A stretch of 64,000 nt of DNA from an uncultured Bacteroidaceae bacterium (GTDB taxonomy: Bacteria > CAIWAD01), in contig CAYFPS010000007.1 in assembly GCA_964345075.1 (NCBI GenBank), forward strand, positions 50,214 through 114,213, written 5' to 3'. The notes beneath the pieces were generated by a model, which saw only the letters and a program-made list of their open reading frames with translations, made no database searches and was not told the origin of the DNA. Below, one piece after another: positions 5,739 through 64,000 of the stretch. The translations under genes and the position numbers were made by a program. Position 1 is the first letter of the stretch, and each line of letters begins with the position of its first letter.

Positions 5739-8528
5739 ATGGCCGGAATCGATCATCCCTGGGCAGCCGTTCTGCCGCATGTGGAGAAACCCGCCCGCTA
5801 TCTGGGTGGCGAGTTCAATTCGGTCATCAAGGACTGGGGGGACGAGGCCATTGTCTGCCGTTTTGCGCTGGCCTTCCCCGACCTCTACGACATCGGCATG
5901 AGCCACCTGGGCACCAAGATCCTTTACAAGCTGATCAATCAGTGTCCGGATCTGCTGATGGAGCGCTCCTTCTGCCCCTGGATCGACATGGAAGAGCAGC
6001 TTCGCGCTGCCGGCCTGCCGCTAATCAGCCTGGAAAGCCATCGCCCGCTTGGGGAATTTGATGTGCTGGGCTTTTCGCTGCAATACGAAATGACCTACAG
6101 CAATGTCCTGACCATGCTGGATCTGGGCGGCGTGCCTCTGCGCACGGCGGAGCGCGCGGATCAGGACCCGATCGTGATTGCCGGCGGCCCCTGCGCCACC
6201 CATCCGGAAAGCATTGCGCCCTTCATTGACGCCTTTCTTGTTGGCGATGCCGAGGAAGCGCTGCCCGATCTTTTACGCCTTGTGGGCAGGTTGAAAAGCT
6301 CGGGTACGGCCAGAGCCGAAATCCTGCATCAGCTGGCACAGGTACCGGGCGTCTATGTGCCCTCGCTCTACTCGACGCGTATGGTGGAAGAGACCGGGCT
6401 GGAAGTGGTTGAAAAGCCGCTTCATCAGGACATTCCCGCCCGTGTGACACGCCGCCTGGTCGAGGATTTGAGCCAGTTTCCCTTTCCTGATGACTCTCCC
6501 ATCGCGCTGAACGAGGCGATTTTTGATCGCCTGAGCATCGAAATCTCGCGCGGCTGCACCGAGGGTTGTCGCTTCTGCCAGGCGGGCATGATCTACCGCC
6601 CGGTGCGCGAACGCAGTCCGGAAGACATCATTCAAACGCTGGAAAGCGCGCTGGACAAGGGTGGATTTGATGAGGCCAGCCTGACCAGCCTTTCCACAGC
6701 CGACTATTCCTGCATCTCGCCCCTGATCCGCGAGGTGATGAAAAAGCTTAGGCCAAAGAGGGTCGGTCTGGGCATTTCAAGCCTGCGCGCTTATGGCCTG
6801 GATGAGGGTCTGCTGGACGAGATCGCCACGGTCAAGGCAACGGGCCTGACCTTCGCGCCCGAGGCAGGCACTCAGCGCATGCGTGATGTGATCAACAAGA
6901 ACATTTCAGAAGAAGACATTCGGCGCACCTGCCACCGGGTTTTCGCCCGCGGCTGGCGCAAGATGAAGCTCTATTTCATCCTGGGCCTGCCGACGGAAAC
7001 CGAGGAAGATCTGGAAGGCATTATTGAGATGGGGCGGAAGGCCTACCGGATTGGCCGCGAGTTCCATCGCAATGTGACCGTTACCGTTTCCGTCTCCAGT
7101 CATGTTCCCAAGCCGCACACGCCCTTCCAGTGGTGCGCGATGGACAGCATGGAGACGATCGCCGAAAAACAGGAATACCTCTGGCAGCGGGCCAGGCGTG
7201 CCGGCTTTCGCCTTCGCAAGCACGACATGCGCGTGAGCCATCTGGAAGGCATTATCGGACGCGGTGATCGTCGCGTGGCCGATCTGCTTGAATTGGCCTG
7301 GCGAAAAGGCGCACGCTTCGACTCCTGGGACGAAAGACTGGACTGGGAAGCCTGGCAGGAAGCGCTTGCTGAGTGGGAAGGCAATACGGGCATTGACCGG
7401 CAGATCTTCCTGAAAACCCTGCCGCTGGATCCGCCCCTGCCCTGGGATCACATCGATGTGGGACTGGAAGAAGGCTTTCTGGCCGGTGAATACAGGCGCG
7501 CGCTGAACAACCGGCTCAGCCCGCCCTGCGGCAAGCCCAAAGGCGAGCAGGTGCATCACACCAACCTGGCCGATGCCAATGCCGATGAGCGCAAACTGGT
7601 CTGTTACCACTGCGGCATTGCCTGTGATCTTTCCGCCATGCGCCAGGAACGCAAGGATTTCCTCGAACAGCTGGGTGCCAGCGAGCCCTGGCAGGGCGGG
7701 AATCCTGGCTGGCGCGAGGCCGCCATGGAGCGTGTATCACGAGGCGAAGCGCCCCATGCCTTTGATCAGGGCAAGCCCATTCGCTTGAGGCTGCGCATGG
7801 AACGGCAGGGTATCGGACGCATGTTCAGCCAGCTCGACCTGGTGCGCGTGCTGCCGCAGGTCCTGCGCCGGGCGGGTTTGAATTTGTATTACAGTCAGGG
7901 CTACAACCCGCACCCTGTGATGAGTTTTGCGCCAGCGATTCCTTTCATGGCCGGCAGTCTGGCCGATCTGGTCGATGTACAGCTGGCCATGCCGGAACTT
8001 CCGCAGGACCTTGACGAAAGGCTTTTCCGGGCATCTTCTCCGGGCATGGTGATCTCTCAGGCCGAAGAACTGGCCGAGGGCGCAGCTCCGCTTTCCAAGA
8101 CCGTCGATTCCATGGACTGGCTGATTCAGCTGCCGGACACGGCCATGGGCCTGGATGCCGAGCAGGATCCCGCGCTGCTGCCCGAGCTTGTCAAAGCCTA
8201 TCATGCATCACTTGATACGCGACTGGCTGATCCGACACCCATCAAGGTTCTGCGCAAGAACCGTGTACGCGAGATTGATTTGAGCGAGCAGGTCATGTCT
8301 GCCCGTGTGATACAAATTGGCACGGAAGGCCCTTCGGGGGACCTTGAACCAGGGCAGCCGGCCCTGCTTTACAGGCAGAAGATTGTGGCCGGAGCCGGTA
8401 TCAAGCCGGAAGAACTAGTCCACGCACTCTTCGGCAACGAGCTTTCGGCCGTGGCCATTCTGCGGCTGGCCTGTTTGTGCGATGGTCAGGATGTGATGCA
8501 GGAGAGACCGGTGGCATGCCTGTCCTGA
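5739..8528 (+). CDS. B12-binding radical SAM protein fused to DUF2344 (TIGR03960/TIGR03936-type)
   Basis: CxxxCxxC-like CTEGCRFCQAG; long conserved C-terminal extension. Start set at MAGIDHPW with AAAAGGGAG RBS. Track ORF 5664..8528. Confidence 0.75.
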   Translation: MAGIDHPWAAVLPHVEKPARYLGGEFNSVIKDWGDEAIVCRFALAFPDLYDIGMSHLGTKILYKLINQCPDLLMERSFCPWIDMEEQLRAAGLPLISLESHRPLGEFDVLGFSLQYEMTYSNVLTMLDLGGVPLRTAERADQDPIVIAGGPCATHPESIAPFIDAFLVGDAEEALPDLLRLVGRLKSSGTARAEILHQLAQVPGVYVPSLYSTRMVEETGLEVVEKPLHQDIPARVTRRLVEDLSQFPFPDDSPIALNEAIFDRLSIEISRGCTEGCRFCQAGMIYRPVRERSPEDIIQTLESALDKGGFDEASLTSLSTADYSCISPLIREVMKKLRPKRVGLGISSLRAYGLDEGLLDEIATVKATGLTFAPEAGTQRMRDVINKNISEEDIRRTCHRVFARGWRKMKLYFILGLPTETEEDLEGIIEMGRKAYRIGREFHRNVTVTVSVSSHVPKPHTPFQWCAMDSMETIAEKQEYLWQRARRAGFRLRKHDMRVSHLEGIIGRGDRRVADLLELAWRKGARFDSWDERLDWEAWQEALAEWEGNTGIDRQIFLKTLPLDPPLPWDHIDVGLEEGFLAGEYRRALNNRLSPPCGKPKGEQVHHTNLADANADERKLVCYHCGIACDLSAMRQERKDFLEQLGASEPWQGGNPGWREAAMERVSRGEAPHAFDQGKPIRLRLRMERQGIGRMFSQLDLVRVLPQVLRRAGLNLYYSQGYNPHPVMSFAPAIPFMAGSLADLVDVQLAMPELPQDLDERLFRASSPGMVISQAEELAEGAAPLSKTVDSMDWLIQLPDTAMGLDAEQDPALLPELVKAYHASLDTRLADPTPIKVLRKNRVREIDLSEQVMSARVIQIGTEGPSGDLEPGQPALLYRQKIVAGAGIKPEELVHALFGNELSAVAILRLACLCDGQDVMQERPVACLS

Positions 8529-10333
8529 AGCGGCCACCCATTGTGCGCCAGACCTTCTGGGCGCTCTTTGGACTCAGCCTGCTGACGCTGCTGGTCATGA
8601 TCTGGATTGCTGCCCAGAGCGCGCGCGATCTCATCTATAACCAAAGCAGAAGCGAGCTCGAAGACCGGGCCAAACTGATTCGCAATCAGCTGGAACTGCT
8701 GTGTGAAGCGGACAGCCTCTTCCTTAAACAATCAATGCGCGCAGACCACTGGCTGAAAGCGCTGGCCAGTGGCCACCAATTGCGTATCACCTTGATCGAC
8801 AGTGCGGGAATTGTGCTGGGTGATACACACGAAAACCCGCTGCAGATGGACAACCATGCCAATCGACCGGAGGTGATGCGCGCGCTTGAAGGAGAACTCG
8901 GCTCCAGCGATCGCTACTCTTCCACCCTCGAGCATCCACTGCTTTACGTTGCGCTGCCCGTACTCAATACACGGCCGCCCGTGGTTCTGCGCACATCCAT
9001 GGCCCGCTCGGCGATCACAGAGGAGATCGGCCTGATCCAGCAGCGCCTGATGCAGGGGGGATTGCTCGCACTGGTGATTGCCGCTCTGCTTGGCTTATGG
9101 AGTGCCCGCCGCATCAGTCGCCCCCTTGAAACCATGCGTCTCTCGGCAGACAGGATTTCTGCTGGCGATCTGGATCATCGCCTTCCTGTCGAGCACAGAA
9201 GCATGGAGCTGGTTGCCCTGGCCACCTCGGTCAATCAGATGGCTCTCAAACTGGCCGACCAGATTCATCGGCTGGATCGCGAAAAGCGCGAGCGGGATGC
9301 TCTTCTGACCGGAATGGACGAAGGGGTGATCGCGCTGGATCGTGGAGGTCGAATTCAGTCCTGCAATCCAGCTGCGGAAAGACTGCTTGGGCTTGAGGAC
9401 TATCCGGTGGGTGCCCGCCTGAAGGACCTGCTGAGTGATCCCGAGCTGTCCTCCCTGCTCGAACAGGGCTGGGCCGGGCGCATCGAAATCGAGCACGCCT
9501 TCAGAGGACTAATGCTGCGCATCCATGCCCTGGTTCTCGAGGATGCTGGCAGCAGCGGAAAACTCCTTCTGGCCGTTTTCAGCGATGTGACACACATCCA
9601 TCAGGCCGAAGAGCAAAGAAAACAGTTCGTCTCCAATGTGAGTCACGAACTGAGAACACCCGTCACCGCCATTCAGGGCTTTGTCGAAACCCTTCTGGAC
9701 GGGGCCCTTGAAGACAGGCAAGTCGCACGGCGACATCTGCAGATCATTGAACGGCAGGCCATTCGCCTGAATGCAATCATTGAGGATCTGCTGACGCTGG
9801 CCCGTATGGAACGGCTTCAGGCGGAACAGGGCCTTCAGGTGCAGCCAGTCAACCTCTGCCAGCTTGTATCACAGATCATTCAGGATCACGCTCAAATGGC
9901 GCTGAAGGCTGGTGTGGATGTGCATTTCAACTGCGACTGCAATCGTGCCGTGGATCACCATGCAGAGCTCGATGCTCATCTCTACGAGCGTGCCGTGATC
10001 AACCTGCTGATCAATGCTCTGCGTTATGGTGGCGAAAAGAGCCGTGTGGAGCTACGTCTGCAGGCTGAAGAACAGGATGGACGAGCCGGCTACAGGCTTG
10101 ATGTCATCGATCAGGGCTGTGGCATCGCGGCCGAGAATCAACCCCGAATCTTTGAACGCTTTTTTGTGGTAGACAAGGCCCGCTCGCGTAGTGTTGGCGG
10201 AACCGGACTGGGCCTGGCCATCGTCAAACATTCAGCGATGGTTCATGGCGGTATGGTCGGGGTGGAAAGTGAAGTCGACAAAGGTAGCCGCTTCTGGATC
10301 TGGATCCCTGCCCGGCAGCCCGTTCGGACCTGA
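8516..10333 (+). CDS. Sensor histidine kinase (HAMP-PAS-HisKA-HATPase, PhoR-like)
   Basis: H-box SHELRTP; G-box GGTGLGLAIVKH; TM segments. Start MPVLKRPP overlaps the radical SAM stop. Track ORF 8477..10333. Confidence 0.85.
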   Translation: MPVLKRPPIVRQTFWALFGLSLLTLLVMIWIAAQSARDLIYNQSRSELEDRAKLIRNQLELLCEADSLFLKQSMRADHWLKALASGHQLRITLIDSAGIVLGDTHENPLQMDNHANRPEVMRALEGELGSSDRYSSTLEHPLLYVALPVLNTRPPVVLRTSMARSAITEEIGLIQQRLMQGGLLALVIAALLGLWSARRISRPLETMRLSADRISAGDLDHRLPVEHRSMELVALATSVNQMALKLADQIHRLDREKRERDALLTGMDEGVIALDRGGRIQSCNPAAERLLGLEDYPVGARLKDLLSDPELSSLLEQGWAGRIEIEHAFRGLMLRIHALVLEDAGSSGKLLLAVFSDVTHIHQAEEQRKQFVSNVSHELRTPVTAIQGFVETLLDGALEDRQVARRHLQIIERQAIRLNAIIEDLLTLARMERLQAEQGLQVQPVNLCQLVSQIIQDHAQMALKAGVDVHFNCDCNRAVDHHAELDAHLYERAVINLLINALRYGGEKSRVELRLQAEEQDGRAGYRLDVIDQGCGIAAENQPRIFERFFVVDKARSRSVGGTGLGLAIVKHSAMVHGGMVGVESEVDKGSRFWIWIPARQPVRT

Positions 10334-11298
10334 ATCGCCTCGACGCATGCTTGCCATCCCAGCGGAAGGCAGATCCGCGGCTCGCTGTGACCAAAAGGCA
10401 TTGAACGTATCACGGGCCTGCCCTCCTGCACAAGATGATCTGAAACAAGCTCATCAAGACTGAAAGTACTCTTGTCCGGGTCCGGCTCATCACAGTTCAT
10501 GAAGCTCCCCAGCAGCACGGCCCTGCATTCTTTCAACCAGCCACATGCGACCAGTTGCGCCAGATGACGATCCAGCCTGAAAGGATATTCACCGTGATCT
10601 TCCAGCAGCAGTGTCGATTCGCCCGGGGCGGCTCCGGCTACACCACATAGACTTGTCAGAACGCTTAGATTCCCGCCAAACAGCGGGGCTTCTCTTCTGC
10701 CTGGGGACAGCACGGATTCCTGTGGAAAAAAGAGCTCCAGCAAATAGCCACGCTGTGATACAAACACCCGGGCGGCATGATCCGGAACTTCGGTCCCTTC
10801 CAGGAGATTCCATTTTCCATCGTGAAGCACCGCCCGCAGGCTGCCAGAACCACTGTCCAGCCAATCGAAAAGGCTGGCAATGGATGCGGCACTTAGCGGA
10901 TCCATGGCTGTGTAATACTCGGTGGCGCCCATGGGACCATGCCAGCAGGGCCAGCCATGCTTTGCCAGCAGCAGATTCTGCAGGCTGGTCAGGTCGCTGT
11001 AACCAAGCAGAACCGGTCGCCGGGTACAGGCTGCGAGTTTTTCGTGATCCAGTGCAGGCAGCAGGCGCAGGCAACCGAAGCCGCCACGCAGCGCCCAGAC
11101 CAGATCACACTCGCTGTCACACAACGCCGCCATCAAATCAGCCAGGCGATCCTCATCACGGCCTGCAAGATGTCCATAGACCTGGCGAACACGTGCACCC
11201 TCGATCACCTGATGGCCTTCACTCTCAAGCCGCTTGACAAGCAACTCAATCCGCTCAGGCGCCACAGGACCGGCAGGGGCAACAAGTCGAATGCGCAT
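10243..11298 (-). CDS. ldcA: LD-carboxypeptidase (peptidase S66)
   Basis: LLGYSDLTSLQ nucleophile motif. Convergent ~90-nt overlap with the HK 3' end. Confidence 0.7.
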   Translation of the reverse strand: MRIRLVAPAGPVAPERIELLVKRLESEGHQVIEGARVRQVYGHLAGRDEDRLADLMAALCDSECDLVWALRGGFGCLRLLPALDHEKLAACTRRPVLLGYSDLTSLQNLLLAKHGWPCWHGPMGATEYYTAMDPLSAASIASLFDWLDSGSGSLRAVLHDGKWNLLEGTEVPDHAARVFVSQRGYLLELFFPQESVLSPGRREAPLFGGNLSVLTSLCGVAGAAPGESTLLLEDHGEYPFRLDRHLAQLVACGWLKECRAVLLGSFMNCDEPDPDKSTFSLDELVSDHLVQEGRPVIRSMPFGHSEPRICLPLGWQACVEAIQVRTGCRAGIQIQKRLPLSTSLSTPTIPP

Positions 11299-12621
11299 CT
11301 AGAATCCCGGATCCATAACCAGCTGGTAGTCGCCAAATCCAGCGCGATCGATGAAGAGGAATTCGCGACCAATGGACTCGTAGCTCCAGCGCTCCCAGGC
11401 CGGGTAGTCCATTGATCCTTCAAATCGCTCGACTTCATCCGGATCACCATGAATCATGTAGACACGGCCTCGATCACTGCGCCAGCCCGGAAAGCGGCTC
11501 CAGGAAAAGCGCTGGTCGGCGAATTCGGCCCTGCGGTAATACTCGCGCATCAGCTCGTTGTCTTCCGTTTCCGGGTCCGGGTCCACGGATTTCCAGAATT
11601 CCTCAAAGCCTTTCTTCTTCAGCTCCATCGGACTTTCGGCCAGATTCCGGTAGCGCTTGCCGGGAAGGATATAGCGCAGCTGTTCGATGCTGCGATCCAG
11701 ATCACTGGGCGTGCCGGGACTTCCCCGCCAGCGCAGCTGAAAGGTCGCCTCGGCAGCGTGGTGAACCCTCTCTGGCCCTCGTTTGGCAAGAAAACCGCTG
11801 CGACCAACATCCTCGACGGCAGGGTCAAGCACTTCAATCAGCATGCGGTAATCGCCGGAGGCAAGCCGGTCGAGGGGCACCTGCAACAGGTTGCGTGATA
11901 CACCGGCCGGATATTCCCGCTCAATTCGCCGATCATGCACCTGATTCTCCCTGCGATCCTCAATCAGGCTGTGCAGTGCCAGCTTGCGTGCCTCCCTGGA
12001 CCAAACCTCGTAATACACAACCAACTCTTCAGGATGTGCGCCACCGTGTCCGGTCACAAAGGGCTGGCTGTCCAGTCCAGATGGCTCCAGGCTGTCTGCA
12101 TCACAGATCAGCCATAGCCGCGAAATCGCCCAATCCCGCTCGCTTAAGTCAGGAACCAGAAATCGGCCTTCCCGCCGAAAAATGCGTCGACTGTTCAGAT
12201 CCTGCAGCTCGACCCACCAGGTGTATTCGCCGGGTTCCACGGCTGCTTGGAAGCGATGCAGTTGCAGTTCCAGATCCGCGGCCTGAGGAAAGCCGTCGAT
12301 CCTGAGTTCACGCCGCTCGTGGCGCGAAGCGACACTGCGCTGCTTGCGTCCCTTGCCCTGCAGGATTTCCAGAGTGACTTCCCAACCAGCTTCGTAGGCA
12401 CCCGATCCGGCCTCGCCGCGCCTGAACTGCAGGTCCTCGGCTGACAGCACACAGGTGAAGACCTGTGTCTCATGGGCAAGGTTCAAGGAATCCAACTGCA
12501 GGCTGGATGAGTGCAGCACATGAAAATCCGGCTCCCAGCGCCTGTTGGAAAACATGTCGCCGGCCGCTGAACTCACCTGTATCACAAGCAGCAGCAAGGC
12601 AAGCCGCATGATCCACTTCAT
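11299..12621 (-). CDS. GWxTD domain-containing secreted protein
   Basis: Signal peptide MKWIMRLALLLLVIQVSSAAG; C-terminal FPGWRSDRGRVYMIHGDPDEVERF (GWxTD signature). Confidence 0.7.
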   Translation of the reverse strand: MKWIMRLALLLLVIQVSSAAGDMFSNRRWEPDFHVLHSSSLQLDSLNLAHETQVFTCVLSAEDLQFRRGEAGSGAYEAGWEVTLEILQGKGRKQRSVASRHERRELRIDGFPQAADLELQLHRFQAAVEPGEYTWWVELQDLNSRRIFRREGRFLVPDLSERDWAISRLWLICDADSLEPSGLDSQPFVTGHGGAHPEELVVYYEVWSREARKLALHSLIEDRRENQVHDRRIEREYPAGVSRNLLQVPLDRLASGDYRMLIEVLDPAVEDVGRSGFLAKRGPERVHHAAEATFQLRWRGSPGTPSDLDRSIEQLRYILPGKRYRNLAESPMELKKKGFEEFWKSVDPDPETEDNELMREYYRRAEFADQRFSWSRFPGWRSDRGRVYMIHGDPDEVERFEGSMDYPAWERWSYESIGREFLFIDRAGFGDYQLVMDPGF

Positions 12622-13934
12622 GTGCTTTCTCCCTGCTCAAGGGGCTCTGCAAAGAGGTCGTACTCCATTGCTTCCGTGTAGCGGACACGCAGGAATTCAC
12701 CCAAGGGATGAATGCCGCGGACTTCAACCGAGTTGTCGATATCCAGCGCGTCTCGACGGGAACGGCCCAGACTTGTGCCGGTGGCCTCGTCAATTTCGTC
12801 GATCAGAATCAGGTCTTCTTCGCCAACAAGCGTTTGATTGGCAGCAAGACTGATCTCCGCCTGCTGGCTCATCAACCGGTCCATGCGCTCTTCGGCCACT
12901 TCGCGGGGAATCTGCTCATCAAGTTTGAGCGCGGGCGTGCCCTCTTCCTGACTGTAAAGAAACGCCCCCAGACGGTCGAAGGGCTCGCTTTTGCAGAAGT
13001 CGAGCAGTTCCTGGAATTCGGCCTCGCCTTCTCCGGGAAAACCAAGAATGATCGATGTGCGCAGGATCAGACCCGGCACTGTATTGCGCATCATGCGCAT
13101 GGTGCGTGAAAGGCTCTCCGCATCGCCGCGCCGGGCCATGCGCTTCAGCACACTCCCTGATACATGCTCGACCGGAAAATCCAGATAGGGCAGAACGTGA
13201 TCCAGATCGGCCATGCTCTGCGCGAAGCGCTCATCGACCAGGGGCGGATGGCTGTAAAGCAGACGGATCCACTGGACGCCACAACCATTTAACGCAGCGA
13301 GAAGCTCGTTGATATCCGGCCCCTGTGTATCACGGCCATAGGAGCTGATTTCCTGACCAATAATGTTCAGCTCCTTTACCCCTCGGGAAGCCAGATGGCT
13401 CGCTTCGGCAACCAGGTCTTCCACACTGCGACTGCGCATGCGACCGCGCATCAGGGGAATGCTGCAGTAGGTACAGCGCTGATCACAACCATCGGAGATG
13501 CGCAGGTAGGCGCTGTGTCTGGGGCTGAGCAGCGTGCGGCCGGTAAAGAGCTCCAGACTGTCCCGCCCGGCGGCTGCTGGTTTAAGCCCCATGTCTCGCA
13601 GCATCGTACCGAACTCACCCACGCCGTATACGCCATCCAGCTCAGGGATCTCGCGGCGAATCTCATCACGGTAGCGCTCGCTCAGGCAGCCCATCACAAC
13701 CACGCGGCGACCGGCATGCTCTTTTTTCAGCTCCACGGCCTCCATCACCGCATCGATGCTTTCGACCCGGGCCGCATCGATGAAGCCACAGGTATTGACC
13801 ACAAGCAGGTCCGCCTTGGCGCCTTCGTCCACAAGATGAACACGGCCAGCCAGCTGCCCCAGAAGGATCTCCGAGTCAACCAGATTCTTGGCACAGCCAA
13901 CCGTGTGCATGTATACTCTCAGTTCAGGACTCAC
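12618..13934 (-). CDS. rimO: Ribosomal protein S12 methylthiotransferase (MiaB-family radical SAM, RimO-like)
   Basis: N-terminal MTTase Cys triad (VGCAKN...); radical SAM CTYCSIP; TRAM-like C-terminus. Confidence 0.75.
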   Translation of the reverse strand: MSPELRVYMHTVGCAKNLVDSEILLGQLAGRVHLVDEGAKADLLVVNTCGFIDAARVESIDAVMEAVELKKEHAGRRVVVMGCLSERYRDEIRREIPELDGVYGVGEFGTMLRDMGLKPAAAGRDSLELFTGRTLLSPRHSAYLRISDGCDQRCTYCSIPLMRGRMRSRSVEDLVAEASHLASRGVKELNIIGQEISSYGRDTQGPDINELLAALNGCGVQWIRLLYSHPPLVDERFAQSMADLDHVLPYLDFPVEHVSGSVLKRMARRGDAESLSRTMRMMRNTVPGLILRTSIILGFPGEGEAEFQELLDFCKSEPFDRLGAFLYSQEEGTPALKLDEQIPREVAEERMDRLMSQQAEISLAANQTLVGEEDLILIDEIDEATGTSLGRSRRDALDIDNSVEVRGIHPLGEFLRVRYTEAMEYDLFAEPLEQGEST

Positions 13935-14869
13935 TGGTCCTCCTCGCCATTGCCTGCGCCCAGCCCTTCAAACAAGGCCCGCGCATAAAGTGTAGAGTCA
14001 AAAGGCTGCAGGTCATCGATGCCTTCGCCCACACCAATCCAGCGAATGGGAATCCCCAGCTCGCGATGGATGGCCAGAGCAATGCCGCCCCGCGCTGTGC
14101 CGTCGAGCTTGGTCAGGACCAGTCCGGACACGCCCGTGCTACTCGAAAAGAGGCGCGCCTGCTGCAAGGCATTCTGCCCGGTGGTACCATCCAGGACCAG
14201 CAGAACCTCATGAGGCGCGCCCGGCAGGCGCTTGTCCAGCACACGGCGAATCTTGTCCAGTTCCTGCATCAGGTTCTTCTTGTTGTGAAGGCGGCCGGCA
14301 GTATCCACCAGCAGCAGATCGTGTCCTCTGGCCTGCGCCCGTCCCAGAGCGTCAAAGGCCACAGCCGCTGGATCCGCACCCTGCGCGGCCTTGACGATTT
14401 CAACCTCCGCCCTGCCAGCCCAGGCTTCCAGCTGCTCGATGGCGGCTGCGCGAAAGGTGTCGGCCGCAGCCAGCAGCACCTTGTGGCCATCGGCCTTGTA
14501 ACGGGCGGCCAGCTTGCCGATGGTGGTGGTCTTGCCCGCGCCGTTGACACCAACCACCAGCACGACCTTTAATTCAGGGCCAGCTTCTGCCTGCTGCTGC
14601 TCATCCTTGTGATTAAGCGCCTTCAGCAACTGCTCCTCAATCAGCTGATCCAGTTCTGTCTCTGCATCGTGCTTGATTGTATCACGCAGACCCTGAACGA
14701 TTTCGTCAACCAGTTCCCAACCGAGATCGGCGCCCAGCAGAATCTCTTCCAGTTCTTCGAGCATGGCCTCATCCACTCGGCGGCCTGTGCCCATCAGTTC
14801 ACGTATACGACCACTCAGGTTTTCCCGCGTGCGGTTCATGGCGCCACTCAGGCGGCGGAAGAGATTCAT
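13931..14869 (-). CDS. ftsY: Signal recognition particle receptor FtsY
   Basis: GVNGAGKTTTIGKLA, DTAGR and TKLDG motifs. Start trimmed to MNLFRR to remove the 124-nt overlap with nadK. Track ORF 13931..14989. Confidence 0.85.
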   Translation of the reverse strand: MNLFRRLSGAMNRTRENLSGRIRELMGTGRRVDEAMLEELEEILLGADLGWELVDEIVQGLRDTIKHDAETELDQLIEEQLLKALNHKDEQQQAEAGPELKVVLVVGVNGAGKTTTIGKLAARYKADGHKVLLAAADTFRAAAIEQLEAWAGRAEVEIVKAAQGADPAAVAFDALGRAQARGHDLLLVDTAGRLHNKKNLMQELDKIRRVLDKRLPGAPHEVLLVLDGTTGQNALQQARLFSSSTGVSGLVLTKLDGTARGGIALAIHRELGIPIRWIGVGEGIDDLQPFDSTLYARALFEGLGAGNGEEDQ

Positions 14870-20748: not shown

Positions 20749-20850
20749 GGTCCGTGATACGCCTTCTGCCCACTTCAGGATTCAGCGGCTGGCCCAAAAT
20801 CGCCGGGAAATCGCAGCCCTGTAAGGCAGGCTTGACGAACTGCTCGCCAA

Positions 20851-55851: not shown

Positions 55852-55929
55852 GAATGCTCACCCATTTTGTCTGTTGTTGACCGGATCAAGGTAGCAAAGG
55901 GGCTTTCTATGAAAAGCCGCCGTGATACA

Positions 55930-57345
55930 TCAGGGAAGAAAGAGCGCCCTGCCAACGCGCGATTCCGCTTTGCCGCGGGCTTCCAGCAGATAGGTTCCGC
56001 CTGCCCGCTCGCCTGCCTGCCATTGCCAGCTGGCGCGACCATCGGCCTTGAGCAGGTCCACCAATTGTCCCTGCAGATTGTAGACGCGCAGATCACGGGC
56101 AAAGTCAGGTTGCTCCACGTGGAGGCTGCCATTGAAGGGGTTGGGCCAGACGGCCAGCAGATTGCGCGATTCTGGCAGCAGGCCGGGTGCTTCGCCCAGA
56201 TCCAGATCCAGCTGGTAAAGGAAGGCAAGAGCTTCGTCAATGGTGGCTCGCCACAGGCCCCAGGAATGTCCCTCGTGATACATGCGGGCAAAGGTGTTGA
56301 ACTCCTTCTCCTCAAACAGCCCTTCCGCCTCTTCTATCAGTGGCAGCAGCGTTGGAATATCGTAGCTGCCCCAGTTCATGTAGATCTCAAGTGAAGCCTG
56401 CTCCAGCCCGGCAAGCCCGGCAAGCTGTTCCTCAGGCAGATAAGGACTCATCAGAATCAGCCGGTTAAAGTACTGCGGATAGTTGTGCGCGAGCCAGGCC
56501 GAGATATTGCCACCATTGGAGGCACCCATCGAAATCATGTCGGCTGGAATAGCCGGCAAATCCAGACTGTCCACGACCATCGGCAGCACCGTCTCGATCA
56601 GGAACTCGCCAAAAGCCTGCTGCTGCGCGCCCGCGTACTCGGCCGTGCGGTTGACCGGCGGCACACAGACAAAAACCGGCAGTTCCTGATCCGGAGCTTC
56701 ATGTGCAACCCAGGCTGCAACACGGGCGAGCATGGCCAGCTGCAGGTAGTCCTGACCGTCGTGAACCAGACAGAGCTCGCGGTTCTGGCCGAATTCGTAA
56801 TCGGGGGGCAAGAGGATGCGAATGGTCCTGGAATTGTTCAGCTGCGGGCTGTAGACGGAAGTCCAGACCAGAAGATCACCTTCCGGATAGTCGTGATTGC
56901 CAATCTCCACCGGCTGGACATAAGCGCTCATCGCCAGTTCGCTGTTGGGTCCAAAGCCACCGGCACAGGTCGCGGGATTAAGCGGGTCCAGCAGCCAGTC
57001 GCTGCCATTGCGCACGATCTTGTAATCCAGCCGGGCATCGTCTTCACACAGAAGGCGCTTGTACCAGAGCTCGGTGCCGCCAATCTGCACAAAGGCAAGA
57101 TTCGGTTCCCATCCTGTCATATCACCAGCCAGCTGTAATACAGATGCGCTGCCGTGATACAAAAACCAGGCCCGTCCCTGCTCCACTATGGGCGCGCGGT
57201 CGCCAGGCAGATTAGCCAGCAGACTGTCCACCAGAGCCGGACGCTCGGCCATGGGTGTCAGATTGATTTGGCTAAGAAAGTCTTCGAAACCATCGGCCGC
57301 TGCCTGAGCGGCAAGAAAAAGCAATGGAAGGATCAGGCCACGCAT
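55930..57345 (-). CDS. Esterase (enterochelin-esterase-like alpha/beta hydrolase) with type IX secretion C-terminal sorting domain
   Basis: Signal peptide; N-terminal Ig-like; hydrolase core; C-terminal ...YNLQGQLV...GTYLLEARG... (T9SS CTD pattern). Confidence 0.65.
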   Translation of the reverse strand: MRGLILPLLFLAAQAAADGFEDFLSQINLTPMAERPALVDSLLANLPGDRAPIVEQGRAWFLYHGSASVLQLAGDMTGWEPNLAFVQIGGTELWYKRLLCEDDARLDYKIVRNGSDWLLDPLNPATCAGGFGPNSELAMSAYVQPVEIGNHDYPEGDLLVWTSVYSPQLNNSRTIRILLPPDYEFGQNRELCLVHDGQDYLQLAMLARVAAWVAHEAPDQELPVFVCVPPVNRTAEYAGAQQQAFGEFLIETVLPMVVDSLDLPAIPADMISMGASNGGNISAWLAHNYPQYFNRLILMSPYLPEEQLAGLAGLEQASLEIYMNWGSYDIPTLLPLIEEAEGLFEEKEFNTFARMYHEGHSWGLWRATIDEALAFLYQLDLDLGEAPGLLPESRNLLAVWPNPFNGSLHVEQPDFARDLRVYNLQGQLVDLLKADGRASWQWQAGERAGGTYLLEARGKAESRVGRALFLP

Positions 57346-57378: not shown

Positions 57379-58548
57379 TCAAGCGAGATGGATATTAAGC
57401 CGGCGCTGACTCTCGCTACCTTCTGCTCCTTGTATCACGGCAATCCCGGACTCCCTGCTGATGCTGACCACACTGGATGAGCAGTCTTCCGTCGGCAGAA
57501 CGCCATTGCTGAAAACAGGCAGGGGTACTCCATCCGCGGCATGAAACTGGGCCACGCCGATCTGCACAAAGTCCATGTGTCCGTGATCCAGATGAATCAG
57601 TCCGAGAGCCAGGCCCTTGATTGCATCCTTGAAGGTGGCAATCCAGCCTTCGCTCTGCCCGGCGGCATAAGCGGCCAGCAGCCTGTCCAAGATGGTGGAG
57701 GGATTGGCATGCCCGGCCGCCTGCTGTAGAAAGAGGCCGCGCAGCAACAGGAGGTGATTGATGCTGTCCAGCTGCTGGTCCTGCATTTCAATCGCCATCA
57801 GAAAGAACTTGTCACTCTGGCGGGGCCAAAGGTTGATCAGGCGCGCGGCCGGCCCCTGTGAAGGGTGGTGGTCCAGCGCAAGCCTGCCCGGGGCGGGATT
57901 GTCATGCACATCCAGCAAGCGCGCCAGCTGATTCATTCCGCTCAGATTCGACTCGATGGACGGCTGCCCGGAATCCTTGAACTGACGGGCGAGATCAAAG
58001 GCATCACTCAGGCGCAGCTGCAGCTCCACACGCTGCGTGATCGCATGCAGCTTTTCCAGAAGTTCCTTGCCGAAAAAGCGCGGAACATTGGCAGAGAAGT
58101 ACAGCACACCCTTGCGATCCAGGCTGAACCAGGGAATGCGCGCGTTGCTCTTGACGCCTTCGCGCAGGGCGACCTGTGACGAGAGGCTCTGCCCGCGTCT
58201 GGCAAGGTGCTCGGCCATATCGGGAATTGTATCACCGTGTCCGGCCGCGAAAAGCTCGCCCAGACTGGTTTTGTCAAGGGGCATGGCATGAAACTGGTCG
58301 ACAAAAAGGGAAGGGCTGCTGCGGCGGAAACGCACGGGCAGCACAAGACCGTCGGTGCTCAGGTAGCTGATGCCGATGCGAAAGACATGGCCCCCATCCG
58401 GACGTTCTCCCTGCATGATTCGGGCAACTTCGTTGACATGCAGCAGCAGGGCCTGCACAAAATCACCAAGATCCGCTGCTGTGGCCTGTGCGCGATCAAA
58501 GCGCTCGAGTGATGCGCGAATGAGTTCCGTCTTGCGAGTCGAATTCAT
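57379..58548 (-). CDS. Hypothetical protein
   Basis: Long ORF, coding-like composition, terminator upstream; no motif recognised. Confidence 0.5.
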   Translation of the reverse strand: MNSTRKTELIRASLERFDRAQATAADLGDFVQALLLHVNEVARIMQGERPDGGHVFRIGISYLSTDGLVLPVRFRRSSPSLFVDQFHAMPLDKTSLGELFAAGHGDTIPDMAEHLARRGQSLSSQVALREGVKSNARIPWFSLDRKGVLYFSANVPRFFGKELLEKLHAITQRVELQLRLSDAFDLARQFKDSGQPSIESNLSGMNQLARLLDVHDNPAPGRLALDHHPSQGPAARLINLWPRQSDKFFLMAIEMQDQQLDSINHLLLLRGLFLQQAAGHANPSTILDRLLAAYAAGQSEGWIATFKDAIKGLALGLIHLDHGHMDFVQIGVAQFHAADGVPLPVFSNGVLPTEDCSSSVVSISRESGIAVIQGAEGSESQRRLNIHLA

Positions 58549-59155: not shown

Positions 59156-59195
59156 GATTTATATCTCTTGACGGGGCATTTCCCAAGTAATAAAC

Positions 59196-59211
59196 TGGCA
59201 AGGAGTTTGCA
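59196..59211 (+). promoter_or_regulatory. Sigma54 (-24/-12) promoter TGGCAAG-gagt-TTGCA
   Basis: Matches TGGCACG-N4-TTGCW with correct spacing. A sigma54-dependent activator gene is adjacent. Confidence 0.6.
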
Positions 59212-59221
59212 GTGTGTCTGA

Positions 59222-59356: not shown

Positions 59357-59366
59357 GGAGGCCTTC

Positions 59367-60839
59367 ATGGCGAGTCCGTTGATCTGGGTACTGGACGATG
59401 ACCTGCAGCAGATTCGGATTCTGTCCTTTCTGCTGGAGGAAGCCGGCTATCGATGCCGCTGCTTCGACCGGGCCGAGGATCTGCTGGCTCGTCTGAGCGA
59501 GATAGAAGAAGCCTCTGCCCTGCTGCTGGATCTGCGCATGCCCGGTCTGGGCGGAGAGGAAGCCTTAAGCGAGATCCGCAAGCAGGAGCCCGGCCTGCCC
59601 GTCCTGATCACCAGTGGACAGCAGAATGTCGATACCGCCATCCAGATTCTGCAGGCCGGTGCCTGGGACTACCTGACCAAGCCCATTGACGACGAAAAGC
59701 TGCTGCTTTCACTAAGCCGCGCCGTCCGGCAGCGAGAGCTTGAGCAGCAGGTGCGCGAGCTCAAGCACAGCAATCAGCGCGGCATGGATCGTCTGATTGG
59801 CCAGAGCGAGGGCATGCGTAAGGTTTACGATCTGATTCGCCGCTCGGCCGAATCGCGCATCCCTGTCTTGATTCAGGGTGAAAGCGGAACCGGCAAGGAG
59901 CTTGTCGCACAGGCCATCCACAATCTCGATCAGCATTTCAAGGGCGAGTTCATCAGCATCAACTGTGCGGCCATTCCCCGCGAACTGGTTGAGAGTGAGC
60001 TCTTTGGCCATGAAAAGGGCTCCTTCACCGGCGCGCACCAGCAACGACTGGGTGCATTTGAAAGAGCTAATGGCGGCACGCTCTTTCTGGACGAGATCGG
60101 CGAGCTGAGTCCCGGCGTGCAGGCCAAACTGCTGCGTGTGCTACAGGAATGGAGCGTGCGCCGTGTTGGTGGCGATCGCGAGATCCGGCTCAACCTGCGT
60201 CTGATCACGGCAACCAAGCAGCAGCTTTCCAGCATGGTGCAGGCGGGAAAGTTTCGCGATGATTTGTATTACAGAATCAACCACATCACCATGCAGCTCC
60301 CACCCTTAAGGGAGCGCAGGCAGGACATGGGTCTCCTGATCAACCACTTCCTTAGCAAGCACAGTCAGAGCTTCGGCAAGGACAACATGATTTCGCCCGA
60401 TGGGGAACTGCTTGACTTCTGTAAAGCCTACACCTGGCCGGGCAATGTCAGACAGCTGGAAAACGCCATCTGCCGCGCTCTGGCTGTATCACAGTCCAGT
60501 TCCATCAGCGTTCAGGACTTCCCGGAAGAGCTGCTCGCCGAATGGAAAGCCATGCAGGAGAGTCCGCCCGGCATCACCGGTAGCCAGCAAACAGCAAGTC
60601 CAACGGGAGTGGAGCTGCGTGTTACAAATCAGGGCAGCGGCCTGCTCCAGCGTCGTGAGACAGACTGGCTGAGTGTTTTCAAGACGAAATCGGAGTTATT
60701 GACTCTGGAACGCGTGCGCGAGCTGTACATCAACCACGCGCTCAAGCTGCACAATGGGGCCTTGCAGGAAACGGCCAAAAGTCTGGGAATCGGCAGGACG
60801 ACTCTCTATCGTCAGCTCAAGGATCCTGCCGGCGATTGA
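59367..60839 (+). CDS. Sigma54-dependent response regulator (NtrC/LuxO family: REC-AAA+-HTH)
   Basis: GESGTGKE; ESELFGHEKGSFTGA; C-terminal HTH; GGAGG RBS. Track ORF from TTG at 59355. Confidence 0.85.
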   Translation: MASPLIWVLDDDLQQIRILSFLLEEAGYRCRCFDRAEDLLARLSEIEEASALLLDLRMPGLGGEEALSEIRKQEPGLPVLITSGQQNVDTAIQILQAGAWDYLTKPIDDEKLLLSLSRAVRQRELEQQVRELKHSNQRGMDRLIGQSEGMRKVYDLIRRSAESRIPVLIQGESGTGKELVAQAIHNLDQHFKGEFISINCAAIPRELVESELFGHEKGSFTGAHQQRLGAFERANGGTLFLDEIGELSPGVQAKLLRVLQEWSVRRVGGDREIRLNLRLITATKQQLSSMVQAGKFRDDLYYRINHITMQLPPLRERRQDMGLLINHFLSKHSQSFGKDNMISPDGELLDFCKAYTWPGNVRQLENAICRALAVSQSSSISVQDFPEELLAEWKAMQESPPGITGSQQTASPTGVELRVTNQGSGLLQRRETDWLSVFKTKSELLTLERVRELYINHALKLHNGALQETAKSLGIGRTTLYRQLKDPAGD

Positions 60840-61257: not shown

Positions 61258-61265
61258 GGGGGTTC

Positions 61266-63377
61266 CTATTGCCTCTTCAACATGACCAGTGAGTTGATCG
61301 CCGCTTGCATCTCCCGGACAAGCAGCGCCAGTTCAGCCTCCAGTGCCTGTCCCGACTCGCCTTCGCGCGCCAGGTTTTCACAGGACTCGGCCAGCTTCGA
61401 CAATTTTTCAAATCCATAACTGCCGCCACTGCCCTTCAGTTGATGCAGCAGCGACACCAGTGCTTCTTCCTCCTTGTGCTGTGCAGCCAGCATCAGCTCA
61501 TCCACCTGCACTTGCAGATGTTCCAGATAGGCAACCAGAATCGGCAAAAAGCGCGGATTGTCGGCGCGGCTACTGGTACTGATCTCAACCAGATCCTGCA
61601 GGTCCTTCGACTGCGGCAGATCCACCTCTGTCTGCTGCTCCACAACCGAATCACCGCTGGCTACACGTCTGCAACGCTCGATCAGCAGCCTCTCATCAAC
61701 CGGTTTGGTCAGGACTTCGTCAAAACCTGCTTCCAGGCAGCGCTCGCGATCCTGCACCATCGCGTAGGCGGTGAGCGCCACAACCGGACCGGCAAGGCCG
61801 GCTTCCCGCATGCGGCGAACGGCCGTGTAACCATCCATCTGCGGCATGCGTACGTCCATCAGAATCAGATCGAAAGGCTGGCCCTGCGAAAGCGCGCCTA
61901 ATGCGGCGGCCAATCCCTGCGCTCCATCGACAGCCATGCGAACCTTTGCTCCCTGCTCTTCCAGCAGAAAGCGAATGATGCGGCGATTATCCAGACTGTC
62001 ATCCACCAGCAGGATCGATGTATCACGGAGCATTTCCTCGCTTCCAGCTGCAAGCCCTGCCAGCTGGCCGTCCTGCTGATGCGCAGCCGGATCAAGTTTC
62101 ATCGGAACTTCCAGCGTGAATATGCTGCCCACACCCAGCTTGGAACTTACCGTCAGATCGCCCCCCAGCATGCGAGCCAGCCGGCGACTGATAAAGAGCC
62201 CGAGCCCCGAGCCTTCCGTTCCGAAATCGGGCTGATTGCCCGCCTGCCTGAAGGGTTCAAAAATGCGTTCCAGGCGTGAAGCGGGAATGCCCGGACCTGT
62301 ATCACAGACCCGCACATAAAGAATGCGTCGATCTTCTTCACCTGTCGGCTCCAGACTGGCCTTGACGGTAACCGAGCCAGTTGGCGTGAATTTGAGCGCA
62401 TTGGAAATCAGGTTGATCAGAATCTGGCGTATGCGCAGGCGATCGCTGATGCAGGCCTGCTCCAGCCCTCCGCCCTGCTCCAGCCCGAGCACCAGGCCGC
62501 GTTCACGAGCAAAGCTGGCCAGCAGTTCCTGCACTTCAACAAGCAGATTGGCCGGAACCAGCGAGTCCTCATGCAGTTCGACACGATCCGCCTCGATCCG
62601 GCTCAAATCAAGCACATCATTGATCAGCTCGAGCATATGCTGGCCACTGCGCAGAATCTGTCTTGACCAGCTGGCACTTTCCCGCAAACTGATTCCCGAG
62701 CGCTGCATCAAGCGTGCATAGCCGATGATGGCTGTCATGGGCGTACGAATCTCGTGACTCATTCGCGCAAGGAATTCGCTCTTGGCCCGGTTCGCCTCTT
62801 CAGCCTGCTCCTTCAGCAGCATTAATTCATGCTGCATGCGCTCGCGCCGGCGCACTTCACGCTGCATCAGGTCGTGTGACAAACAGCTTTCAACCGTGCG
62901 GGCAAAACGGCCCAGCACACCGTGCAGCATGCGGGCCACCTGAGCGGGCGCATCCTGCTGGGGTTCTGTCAGAAAGAGCTCGATGTGACCCAGCTTGTGA
63001 ATGTGATGGACGAGCATCACGCCGCTATGCGTGGGCTTGAAAGAGAAAAGCTTTTCAAAATCGGCTTCATCGCTGGAACGGATGAAGGGGCAACCCTTTT
63101 CCTCAAGTGCAAGAATAAGCGGGTGATCGTGTTCAAGCACGTTCAGCGAATCCGGGTAGCGCGGCCTGCTGTAGACAAGCCGTGATTCATCCTCGCTGTT
63201 CAGGCGGCGAATGCCATCAAGGCGTGATGCACGAATCCAGAGAGCACACTGTCCCACATTGAAGCGGGTCATCAGGCTGCGGAAAAAGCCCTCGCAGTTC
63301 TCCTTCAGAATCAGCGAGCTGCCAATGGACTGGGAGACCTCAAACAGGGAGGCAAGATGAGCGCTTAGCTGACTCAT
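61266..63377 (-). CDS. Hybrid sensor histidine kinase with REC and C-terminal Hpt domain
   Basis: HEIRTP H-box, HATPase, REC ([11 protein letters not shown]), Hpt ([11 protein letters not shown]). Confidence 0.8.
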
Positions 63378-64000
63378 TAGCGAAGATGCAAGGCGGCAAC
63401 AACCAGTGTCTTGTTGAGGACTTCAATGCACAGGCGGCCGGCGGACGCAATTTCACCCAGAGTCAGAACGCCAAGCGAGACACCCGCCGGGTCAAGTTTG
63501 CTGACTTCCGCCTGTATGCCTTCCAGCTCCCGCGTGTAGTCGTCCTTGAGGTAAAGGATGCGTGATACACAGTCAAAGATCAGCCAGCCGGCCGCCGGCT
63601 TCTCAAGCGGGCTCAGATCGCGCACGACCTCAATTCCCGCCTCGATCAGACTGTCGGGACTGCCGCACAGGATTTGCAGGACCGAGTTTTCCGGCACATC
63701 CCCCACACAAACCAGGCTGCCGTCTTCCAGCAGGGTCAGGGGATCACGCACAATGTCTTCACGACCTGTACGACCCATGCCAAAGGGGAAACCCTGAGCG
63801 TCCTCAAAGAAGTGTGTGGTCCGCACGGTGTAACTGGTTTGCTGGCGAATGCTCTCGCGATAGACCTCAAAGGCGGGCTGCCAGTTCAGTTCGTGAAGGA
63901 CATTAGCGGAGGTTCGTGTTGCAATGAAGGGTCCATCCAGTGGTTGCCAGCCGTGTCTCACACTGTAACTGGAATCCAGTGGCAGAAAAACCAGCAGGGC
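63377..64000 (-). CDS. FIST domain sensor protein (partial, continues beyond window end)
   Basis: FIST-C-like region; 1-nt overlap with the hybrid HK start. Confidence 0.55.

Follow-up and report, generated by a model that had tools for sequence, protein, structure and literature searches.

A short non-palindromic DNA word, the octamer TGTATCAC with the heptamer core GTATCAC, recurs roughly once per kb, in both orientations, through most of a 64-kb stretch of genomic DNA (hereinafter, the window) from an uncultured Bacteroidaceae bacterium (NCBI assembly GCA_964345075.1, contig CAYFPS010000007.1, positions 50,214 to 114,213 of the forward strand). The excess of the word over the random expectation is about 30-40-fold, its sites are conserved by selection that acts on DNA rather than on the encoded peptides, and it is restricted to two sister species, that is, genus-specific. 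The word is real, strong and previously unreported, and belongs to the class of lineage-specific hyper-abundant words; in the literature that we searched, neither orientation of the octamer is described as a word, and the accessions of the sister-species genomes are not mentioned. The interpretation that we favor, with a rough probability of 45%, is that TGTATCAC functions as a genus-specific self-tag in double-stranded chromosomal DNA, most likely as an uptake signal analogous to the uptake signal sequences (USS) of Pasteurellaceae and the DNA uptake sequences (DUS) of Neisseriaceae. All counts for the two word-bearing species given below cover the window and approximately 45 kb of DNA from the sister species.

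Abundance and form of the word

The heptamer GTATCAC/GTGATAC is present in 68 copies on the two strands of the window, the first starting at position 7734 and the last occupying positions 63562-63568; 42 copies read GTATCAC on the plus strand and 26 read GTGATAC (Table 1). In 100 dinucleotide-preserving shuffles of the window, the mean number of copies was 1.76 (standard deviation 1.44, maximum 7), and an order-3 Markov model predicts 6.2. With 55 copies observed against 1.9 expected under the order-3 model (z=38), TGTATCAC is the most deviant 8-mer of the window. The first-pass annotation of this DNA, in which the word was noticed by eye, put its density at about one copy per kb in both orientations, in agreement with the measured 1.2 copies per kb between 7.7 and 63.6 kb. 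The number of copies given there, about 64 (41 and 23 in the two orientations), was slightly low, the rough expectation of about 5 heptamers is superseded by the two computed values, and the G+C content, estimated at 62%, is actually 59.0%.

The position that precedes the heptamer (-1) is T in 55 of the 68 copies, as initially noticed. The following position (+1) is G in 37 copies, A in 18, C in 12 and T in one, so the original statement that T never occurs there stands as near-absence but not as strict absence; position +2 is T in just three copies. The fuller form of the word can thus be written as T-GTATCAC followed by two non-T positions. When all copies are aligned, the information content is confined to positions -1 to +8, and the 25 bases on each side are at the background level. 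Because the flanks carry no information beyond these positions, the word is a free-standing 8-10-mer that is not embedded in any longer dispersed repeat. Remnants of miniature inverted-repeat transposable elements or repetitive extragenic palindromes, an alternative raised in the first pass, are ruled out by these uninformative flanks and by the location of 94% of the copies inside open reading frames (ORFs).

Imperfect copies of the word are also over-represented: 128 sequences match the octamer with at most one mismatch, compared with 21 expected, and 73 of these, against about 19 expected, contain one mismatch. The enriched variants are TGTAACAC (9 copies), TGTATTAC, TGTGTCAC and CGTATCAC (7 copies each), with the enrichment concentrated at word positions 1, 4, 5 and 6; substitutions at G2, A7 or C8 give no enriched variant in the window. 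The most frequent variant, TGTAACAC, occurs on both strands (positions 15346, 25419, 30096, 30799, 34106, 40227, 51487, 53971 and 60619; 9 copies against 0.3-0.5 expected) and might represent an alternative, tolerated version of the word (TGTAWCAC). An apparent depletion of TGTATCA(A/G/T) turned out to be an artefact of the order-3 expectation, which is inflated by the word itself, and disappears when an order-1 model is used.

Selection on DNA rather than on protein

Sixty-four of the 68 copies lie in 36 of the 48 genes of the window, which bears out the early observation that the word is found in many unrelated genes and on either coding strand. The other four copies are intergenic, which is exactly the share expected given that non-coding DNA makes up 5.8% of the sequence beyond 7.7 kb. 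Relative to the genes that contain them, 26 copies are in the sense and 38 in the antisense orientation, and all five stop-free frames are occupied, the sole empty frame being the one that would read TGA. The most common frame is the antisense xGT-GAT-ACA (Asp-Thr, 26 copies), which had gone unmentioned in the first pass; it is followed by GTA-TCA (Val-Ser, 19 copies), which had been correctly described as often used, GTG-ATA (Val-Ile, 12 copies) and two minor frames, TAT-CAC (Tyr-His, 5 copies) and ATC-AC (Ile-Thr, 2 copies). The peptide AVSQ, cited originally as a product of the word in four genes, is indeed encoded in the GH53, NAD kinase and NtrC-like genes, but the histidine kinase gene encodes LVSQ. 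Of all such codons, 12 of 37 ATA, 19 of 99 GTA and 19 of 122 TCA are located inside the word. The copies show no bias toward gene ends (Kolmogorov-Smirnov p=0.86) and their spacing is near random, with no significant evenness (coefficient of variation 0.88, P=0.17). A recurrent peptide or codon-context motif is ruled out by the five frames, the presence on both coding strands and the intergenic copies.

Comparison with the sister species shows that the individual sites are maintained. Among the 26 window copies with an aligned sister-species ortholog, 21 are identical, whereas 7-mers matched by gene and codon phase are conserved in 31% of the cases, and none of the 200,000 simulations reached 21. 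Third codon positions are 89% identical between the two species inside the word versus 64% outside of it. The conserved footprint spans exactly the positions -1 to +6, and the immediate flanks are variable. There is also turnover, with five sites private to the window and four private to the sister species; the counterpart of a private site is usually 1-3 bases off the word.

When the sites are compared with distant orthologs, about half of them arose by silent changes that introduced rarer codons (GAC-ACC/ACG to GAT-ACA, GTC-TCC to GTA-TCA, ATC to ATA), and about half involve amino acid replacements where the protein is variable (for instance, HSSSD/RSVGD to HRDTG, GCGTE to GCDTR, and FRHRA to FVSQS). 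A mix of synonymous and amino acid-changing sites has likewise been reported for USS and DUS (PMC2817400). Across 17 genes, the word tends to be less dense where protein identity is higher (Spearman -0.44, p=0.08). The use of five frames, the share of rare codons taken up by the word and the difference in third-position identity all uphold the original proposal that selection acts on the DNA word and not on the peptide, and the sites are held across about 16% nucleotide divergence. Genes pay for the word in their choice of codons and, at some sites, in the amino acids that they encode.

Distribution of the word among relatives

The sister species is represented by metagenome-assembled genomes (MAGs) from NCBI (GCA_0467661xx-4xx; L168 and L170-L174), which are mutually 99.5% identical, and by JGI metagenomes (33000729xx; L081, L082 and L175), the assemblies of which are independent of those in NCBI. 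These loci are colinear with the window, with nucleotide identities of 84.6% and 82.5%, and carry the word in stretches of 11.3 kb (14 copies), 4.7 kb (7 copies) and 22.2 kb (14 copies). The density is 1.2-1.5 copies per kb for L081/L082, compared with 0.63 for L168. An assembly artefact is ruled out because the sites recur at orthologous positions in assemblies from NCBI and JGI that are independent of each other and derive from several samples. In five of the sister-species MAGs, at 99.5% identity, all 14 sites are fixed, and the variation among these genomes is too low to be informative.

The next relative (SRR31146644, loci L083 and L169; 71-76% protein identity, 61-64% G+C) has three copies in 26 kb, one of which is orthologous to the copy in the yjbQ gene of the window (43662). 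In the L083 yjbQ gene (2116-2532), the orthologous position reads GTA-TCA-CAG; this copy may be a remnant or a chance match. No copies were found in the syntenic relatives L084-L087 (64-66% protein identity, 71% G+C). For a broader survey, 80 loci from many phyla, with 61-69% identity, were retrieved from GTDB genomes using the carboxyltransferase as the query, and 80 metagenome loci were retrieved with the radical SAM protein (best-segment identity 36-62%); the SpoIIE protein used as a query of GTDB genomes gave no match. The word is enriched in none of these 160 loci of other lineages. The search of related genomes suggested in the first pass thus finds the word in the sister species and shows it to be scarce or absent beyond. 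Among organisms with a name, the closest are Candidatus Delongbacteria MAGs, with approximately 61% identity for one protein, and the genes for proteins related to the type IX secretion system (T9SS) and for a GWxTD protein in the window fit a lineage of the Fibrobacteres-Chlorobi-Bacteroidetes (FCB) type.

A region depleted of the word

The left end of the window (positions 1-7733) contains no exact copies and two one-mismatch copies in 7.7 kb (P about 9e-5). The equivalent region of the sister species (L168, 7670-17679) has a single copy in 10 kb, some 2 kb of which extend to the left of the window. The genes in this desert encode a ClpA-like protein, ribosomal protein L28, 3-dehydroquinate (DHQ) synthase, DHQase II and a hypothetical protein; identity is very high for the ClpA-like protein (96%) and DHQ synthase (94%), and 82% for the hypothetical protein. 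A foreign origin of the desert is ruled out on two grounds: its tetranucleotide composition is native (r=0.95), and the sister species has the corresponding stretch, diverged to the usual extent. Protein constraint is ruled out as the full cause, given that the hypothetical gene, at 82% identity, also lacks a copy. In the sister species, flagellar export genes (fliM, fliN, fliO and fliP; L168, 19525-22241) are located about 4-7 kb past the position that corresponds to the left end of the window.

Possible functions of the word

If the octamer is an uptake tag, the word would be bound at the cell surface by a DNA receptor belonging to a competence system or a type IV pilus, and DNA of the same genus would thereby be taken up preferentially. 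Recombination of the imported fragments would then spread word-bearing alleles (molecular drive), and the word would accumulate where the encoded protein tolerates it and would be restored when lost. Uptake as a process, the existence of a receptor and the transformability of the organism are all postulated here by analogy with USS and DUS. We tentatively suggest that the word could be the first uptake signal sequence outside of Proteobacteria, a self-recognition tag of an uncultivated FCB-type genus in sequence-specific transformation, which, if true, implies an independently evolved DNA receptor. The similarity to USS and DUS pointed out in the first-pass annotation stands as a resemblance in density, orientations, lineage specificity and excess of one-mismatch copies, and the enriched one-off variants agree with the graded drive that was reported for uptake sequences (PMC1939737). 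The support drawn from a comF gene is weak, and no enrichment is seen in terminators or intergenic DNA of the window.

Several observations weigh against uptake. The putative comF gene (20062-20748) contains no copy of the word and shows a weak ComF/phosphoribosyltransferase match (43 bits to TIGR00201, against a cut-off of 233, with Pfam Pribosyltran below threshold), so the competence gene invoked originally is poor evidence. No genes for a type IV pilus, ComEA, ComEC, DprA or a ComP-type minor pilin were found among the 48 genes of the window. To our knowledge, sequence-specific uptake is limited to Pasteurellaceae and Neisseriaceae. DUS often form inverted pairs in terminators; the window has a single close inverted pair (8784/8820; GTATCAC, 29 nt, GTGATAC; 8784-8826), which is intragenic, inside a histidine kinase gene, and is kept in the sister species (L168, 6584/6620). 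The word desert is not a recent island of the kind that the uptake model predicts, because its composition is native. The 64 of 68 copies inside ORFs are what 94% coding density predicts, with no excess in intergenic DNA or terminators of the window, whereas known uptake words are found in ORFs in 65% of the cases in H. influenzae, 49% in A. pleuropneumoniae and 34.5% in N. meningitidis (PMC2817400). Furthermore, the frames of known USS follow preferred codons (PMC2817400), whereas for the present word rare codons are used in two of the three main frames. Finally, all established features fit equally well a selected word similar to the highly iterated palindrome HIP1.

A word of that kind would be selected for a chromosome-level role, in nucleoid or domain structure, or would result from a methyltransferase combined with a repair bias, without any uptake. 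This option, which fits nearly as well, was missing from the first-pass annotation; we consider it unlikely, but the least so of the alternatives. In cyanobacteria, HIP1 shows a 15-300-fold excess, with about one copy per gene and conserved sites, and has no peptide, RNA or expression role (PMC5861425; PMC4390886). The excess observed here is comparable, the coding and non-coding densities are equal, 21 of the 26 sites are conserved against 31% expected, and the copies are unevenly spread along the window, leaving a desert for which composition offers no explanation. However, the word is non-palindromic, whereas all described HIPs are palindromes, and the C-to-T variant TGTATTAC is enriched (7 copies against 0.1-0.4 expected), whereas very-short-patch repair acting on 5-methylcytosine should deplete it. 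In addition, no DNA methyltransferase was found among the window genes, the sole methyltransferase being an arsenite methyltransferase.

Being an over-represented, non-palindromic, lineage-specific octamer, the word could also be a Chi-like site, which is read on one strand by RecBCD/AddAB, turns degradation into recombinational repair and marks self DNA, but this appears improbable. The reverse complement of the word, GTGATACA, is read on the minus strand in 62% of the copies. The third-position GC skew is r=-0.034 for the plus strand and most genes are on the minus strand; the minus strand is probably the leading one, a weak indication from a single window. The orientation excess follows the chromosome strand rather than transcription because it has the same direction in genes on the plus strand (8:5) and on the minus strand (33:18). 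However, a ratio of 42:26 does not depart significantly from parity (two-sided binomial test, p=0.068), so that the bias proposed initially in favor of a Chi-like or architecture word is not significant, and it is below the approximately 75% typical of Chi (p=0.017). The Chi site of E. coli occurs about once per 4.5 kb, with a few-fold excess, and both the density of 1.2 copies per kb and the 30-40-fold excess observed here are far above the values for known Chi. No recBCD or addAB genes were found among those in the window.

Even less plausible is a binding site for an abundant DNA-binding protein, nucleoid-associated or of the occlusion type, or a polar word such as the FtsK-orienting polar sequences (KOPS). 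The conserved 8-bp duplex footprint and the uneven regional density, with a desert of 7.7-10 kb in two species, would be compatible with such a site, and the parS half-site TGTTTCAC matches the word at 7 of 8 positions. A parS-like palindrome was nevertheless rejected, there being no full site and a T at position +2 in just 3 of the 68 copies. The skew of 62% is below that of KOPS-type words, which are skewed by more than 80-90%, and about one copy per kb inside genes is unlike known occlusion and partition sites, of which there are tens per genome. The view that there is no DNA-level signal at all, the word being a peptide or codon-context effect, a set of mobile-repeat remnants or an assembly artefact, has a genuine example in the same window, GACAGTCT (see below), but for TGTATCAC it is refuted by the five frames, the intergenic copies, the uninformative flanks and the presence across assemblies.

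Gene content and other over-represented words

The 48 genes of the window have ordinary housekeeping and envelope functions and include those for FtsY, NAD kinase, XseA, CoaX, CdsA, a SurA-like protein, TruD, the carboxyltransferase, glycosyltransferases, two-component systems, T9SS-related proteins and a GWxTD protein. No Rfam families were detected in the window. One gene (52098-53384), which adjoins a gene for an SBF/ACR3-type transporter (53315-54397), encodes a protein in which an arsenate reductase domain (LMWPc/ArsC) is joined to an arsenite methyltransferase domain (ArsM); the word overlaps the start codon of this fusion gene (ATG-TAT-CAC).

Table 1. Copies of the word and the word desert in the window. 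Codons are followed by the encoded residues.
Location	Sequence	Positions	Strand	Orientation in gene	Codons or remark
radical SAM/DUF2344 gene	TGTATCACGA	7734-7740	+	sense	GTATCACGA (VSR)
radical SAM/DUF2344 gene	TGTATCACAC	8307-8313	-	antisense	GTGATACAA (VIQ)
HAMP-PAS histidine kinase gene	CGTATCACCT	8784-8790	+	sense	CGTATCACC (RIT)
HAMP-PAS histidine kinase gene	TGTATCACCC	8820-8826	-	antisense	GGTGATACA (GDT)
HAMP-PAS histidine kinase gene	TGTATCACAG	9866-9872	+	sense	GTATCACAG (VSQ)
LD-carboxypeptidase S66 gene	CGTATCACGG	10407-10413	+	antisense	GTGATACGT (VIR)
LD-carboxypeptidase S66 gene	TGTATCACAG	10755-10761	-	sense	GTATCACAG (VSQ)
GWxTD protein gene	TGTATCACGC	11895-11901	-	sense	GTATCACGC (VSR)
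GWxTD protein gene	TGTATCACAA	12579-12585	+	antisense	GTGATACAG (VIQ)
MiaB-like radical SAM gene	TGTATCACGG	13327-13333	+	antisense	CGTGATACA (RDT)
FtsY gene	TGTATCACGC	14679-14685	+	antisense	CGTGATACA (RDT)
NAD kinase gene	TGTATCACCG	15072-15078	-	sense	GTATCACCG (VSP)
NAD kinase gene	TGTATCACAG	15495-15501	-	sense	GTATCACAG (VSQ)
SLT-LysM transglycosylase gene	TGTATCACCA	18644-18650	+	antisense	GGTGATACA (GDT)
intergenic	CGTATCACGG	20754-20760	-		
GH53-CBM20 gene	TGTATCACGA	21681-21687	+	sense	GTGTATCAC (VYH)
GH53-CBM20 gene	TGTATCACAA	22327-22333	+	sense	GTATCACAA (VSQ)
GH53-CBM20 gene	TGTATCACAG	22495-22501	+	sense	GTATCACAG (VSQ)
GH53-CBM20 gene	TGTATCACAA	22651-22657	-	antisense	GTGATACAG (VIQ)
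intergenic	GGTATCACGA	24189-24195	-		
alpha-amylase family gene	TGTATCACAG	24278-24284	-	sense	GTATCACAG (VSQ)
alpha-amylase family gene	TGTATCACGG	24388-24394	+	antisense	CGTGATACA (RDT)
alpha-amylase family gene	TGTATCACGA	25280-25286	-	sense	GTATCACGA (VSR)
TrkA-type K channel gene	TGTATCACGC	25658-25664	+	antisense	CGTGATACA (RDT)
TrkA-type K channel gene	GGTATCACTG	26546-26552	+	antisense	AGTGATACC (SDT)
carboxyltransferase gene	GGTATCACGG	27280-27286	+	antisense	GTGATACCG (VIP)
hypothetical gene	TGTATCACCG	30824-30830	+	antisense	GGTGATACA (GDT)
hypothetical gene	GGTATCACGC	30956-30962	+	antisense	CGTGATACC (RDT)
amidase_3 gene	CGTATCACGG	31334-31340	+	antisense	GTGATACGC (VIR)
amidase_3 gene	AGTATCACCC	32020-32026	+	antisense	GGTGATACT (GDT)
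amidase_3 gene	TGTATCACAA	32366-32372	+	antisense	GTGATACAC (VIH)
CoaX gene	TGTATCACGG	33087-33093	-	sense	GTATCACGG (VSR)
HAMP-SpoIIE phosphatase gene	TGTATCACAA	34348-34354	+	antisense	GTGATACAT (VIH)
HAMP-SpoIIE phosphatase gene	TGTATCACAG	34921-34927	-	sense	GTATCACAG (VSQ)
HAMP-SpoIIE phosphatase gene	CGTATCACGC	35232-35238	-	sense	CGTATCACG (RIT)
HAMP-SpoIIE phosphatase gene	CGTATCACGC	35722-35728	+	antisense	GTGATACGC (VIR)
HAMP-SpoIIE phosphatase gene	TGTATCACGA	36034-36040	-	sense	GTATCACGA (VSR)
CdsA gene	TGTATCACCC	37235-37241	-	sense	GTATCACCC (VSP)
M23 peptidase gene	TGTATCACAG	40340-40346	+	antisense	TGTGATACA (CDT)
M23 peptidase gene	TGTATCACGA	40763-40769	+	antisense	CGTGATACA (RDT)
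M23 peptidase gene	TGTATCACCG	40898-40904	+	antisense	GGTGATACA (GDT)
GT4 (b) gene	TGTATCACGT	41535-41541	-	sense	TTGTATCAC (LYH)
GT4 (a) gene	TGTATCACGC	43060-43066	-	sense	GTATCACGC (VSR)
GT4 (a) gene	TGTATCACGA	43305-43311	+	antisense	CGTGATACA (RDT)
GT4 (a) gene	TGTATCACCC	43425-43431	+	antisense	GGTGATACA (GDT)
YjbQ/UPF0047 gene	TGTATCACGT	43662-43668	-	sense	GTATCACGT (VSR); kept in the 71%-identity relative L083
ABC ATPase-TOBE gene	TGTATCACGC	45102-45108	+	antisense	CGTGATACA (RDT)
ABC ATPase-TOBE gene	CGTATCACAG	45271-45277	+	antisense	GTGATACGT (VIR)
solute-binding protein gene	TGTATCACGC	47096-47102	-	sense	GTATCACGC (VSR)
PRAI gene	TGTATCACAC	47566-47572	+	antisense	GTGATACAG (VIQ)
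M55 peptidase gene	TGTATCACGG	48575-48581	+	antisense	CGTGATACA (RDT)
asparaginase_2 gene	TGTATCACGG	50024-50030	+	antisense	CGTGATACA (RDT)
asparaginase_2 gene	TGTATCACCG	50306-50312	+	antisense	GGTGATACA (GDT)
TruD gene	TGTATCACGG	50971-50977	+	antisense	CGTGATACA (RDT)
intergenic	GGTATCACGC	51919-51925	+		
ArsC-ArsM fusion gene start	TGTATCACGG	52100-52106	+	sense	ATGTATCAC (MYH)
ArsC-ArsM fusion gene	TGTATCACCC	52894-52900	-	antisense	GGTGATACA (GDT)
SBF/ACR3-type transporter gene	TGTATCACGC	53685-53691	-	antisense	CGTGATACA (RDT)
MmgE/PrpD gene	TGTATCACAA	54512-54518	+	antisense	TGTGATACA (CDT)
intergenic	TGTATCACGG	55922-55928	-		
esterase with T9SS tail gene	TGTATCACGA	56275-56281	-	sense	ATGTATCAC (MYH)
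esterase with T9SS tail gene	TGTATCACGG	57154-57160	-	sense	TTGTATCAC (LYH)
hypothetical gene	TGTATCACGG	57432-57438	+	antisense	GTGATACAA (VIQ)
hypothetical gene	TGTATCACCG	58229-58235	+	antisense	GGTGATACA (GDT)
NtrC-like gene	TGTATCACAG	60486-60492	+	sense	GTATCACAG (VSQ)
hybrid histidine kinase gene	TGTATCACGG	62020-62026	+	antisense	CGTGATACA (RDT)
hybrid histidine kinase gene	TGTATCACAG	62299-62305	+	antisense	TGTGATACA (CDT)
FIST gene	TGTATCACGC	63562-63568	-	sense	GTATCACGC (VSR)
word desert		1-7733	.		zero copies, background one-mismatch numbers; common to sister species

Three other words in the window are over-represented. The first, GACAGTCT, has 17 copies against 1.5 expected, with a 15:2 strand skew, at positions 676, 1015, 2391, 13555, 19460-19841 (five copies, in the SLT-LysM gene), 21574, 25171, 31528, 40640, 56564, 57221, 61993 and 63648; three copies are present in each of L085-L087. 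Given that 16 of the 17 copies are read in the same sense frame, as the codon string GAC-AGT-CTG (Asp-Ser-Leu), GACAGTCT was rejected as a Chi or KOPS word; this coding-level word, in one sense frame, contrasts with TGTATCAC, which occupies five frames. The palindromic octamer CGTATACG has six sites (13625, 14802, 39250, 40071, 45403 and 60905) compared with about 0.13 expected per strand; four of the five copies located in genes read C-GTA-TAC-G (Val-Tyr), and there is one copy in each of L168, L081 and L169, a count too low to interpret. The hexamer CTTAAG has 15 sites, from 12143 to 60305, versus about 4 expected (order 3), with none in the first 12 kb, and reads mostly CTT-AAG (Leu-Lys) or C-TTA-AG.

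Implications and comparison with known systems

So far, only two proteobacterial families are known to take up DNA in a sequence-specific manner, and there is no agreement yet on what HIP1, the one other hyper-abundant genomic word, does. A further independent example from an uncultivated lineage, if true, would indicate that such words evolve repeatedly and would provide a genomic marker that predicts natural transformation in unculturable organisms. Two species that have the word and a close relative that lacks it would then offer a clean comparison for finding the protein that reads the word. On the practical side, the word provides a sharp criterion for assigning contigs to this genus during binning and for recognizing foreign DNA within it.

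Among the known systems, Chi, KOPS and the architecture-imparting sequences (AIMS) share with the present word the properties of an over-represented, non-palindromic, lineage-specific octamer. Chi and KOPS/AIMS words show strong replication strand skew and are few-fold enriched, whereas here the split is 62:38, which is not significant and refers to a single window with an inferred direction of replication, and the enrichment is 30-40-fold. The similarity to HIP1 (GCGATCGC) is that both are hyper-abundant octamers with about one copy per gene, located in and between ORFs, with conserved orthologous sites (PMC5861425) and without a peptide or RNA explanation; however, the word is non-palindromic and genus-restricted, whereas HIP1 is palindromic and phylum-wide.

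The closest known kind are the USS of Pasteurellaceae (core AAGTGCGGT or ACAAGCGGT) and the DUS of Neisseriaceae (ATGCCGTCTGAA and its dialects). The word differs from these in sequence and in its host, an uncultivated FCB-type lineage rather than a proteobacterium, in the fraction of copies in ORFs (94% versus 34-65%) with no intergenic or terminator excess, in the use of rare codons and in the lack of extended AT-rich flanks. What the word has in common with USS and DUS is that it is short and non-palindromic, occurs about once per kb in both orientations and only in close relatives, is read in several frames, tends to sit at poorly conserved residues, and is accompanied by an excess of one-mismatch copies (PMC2817400; PMC1939737; PMC3630211).

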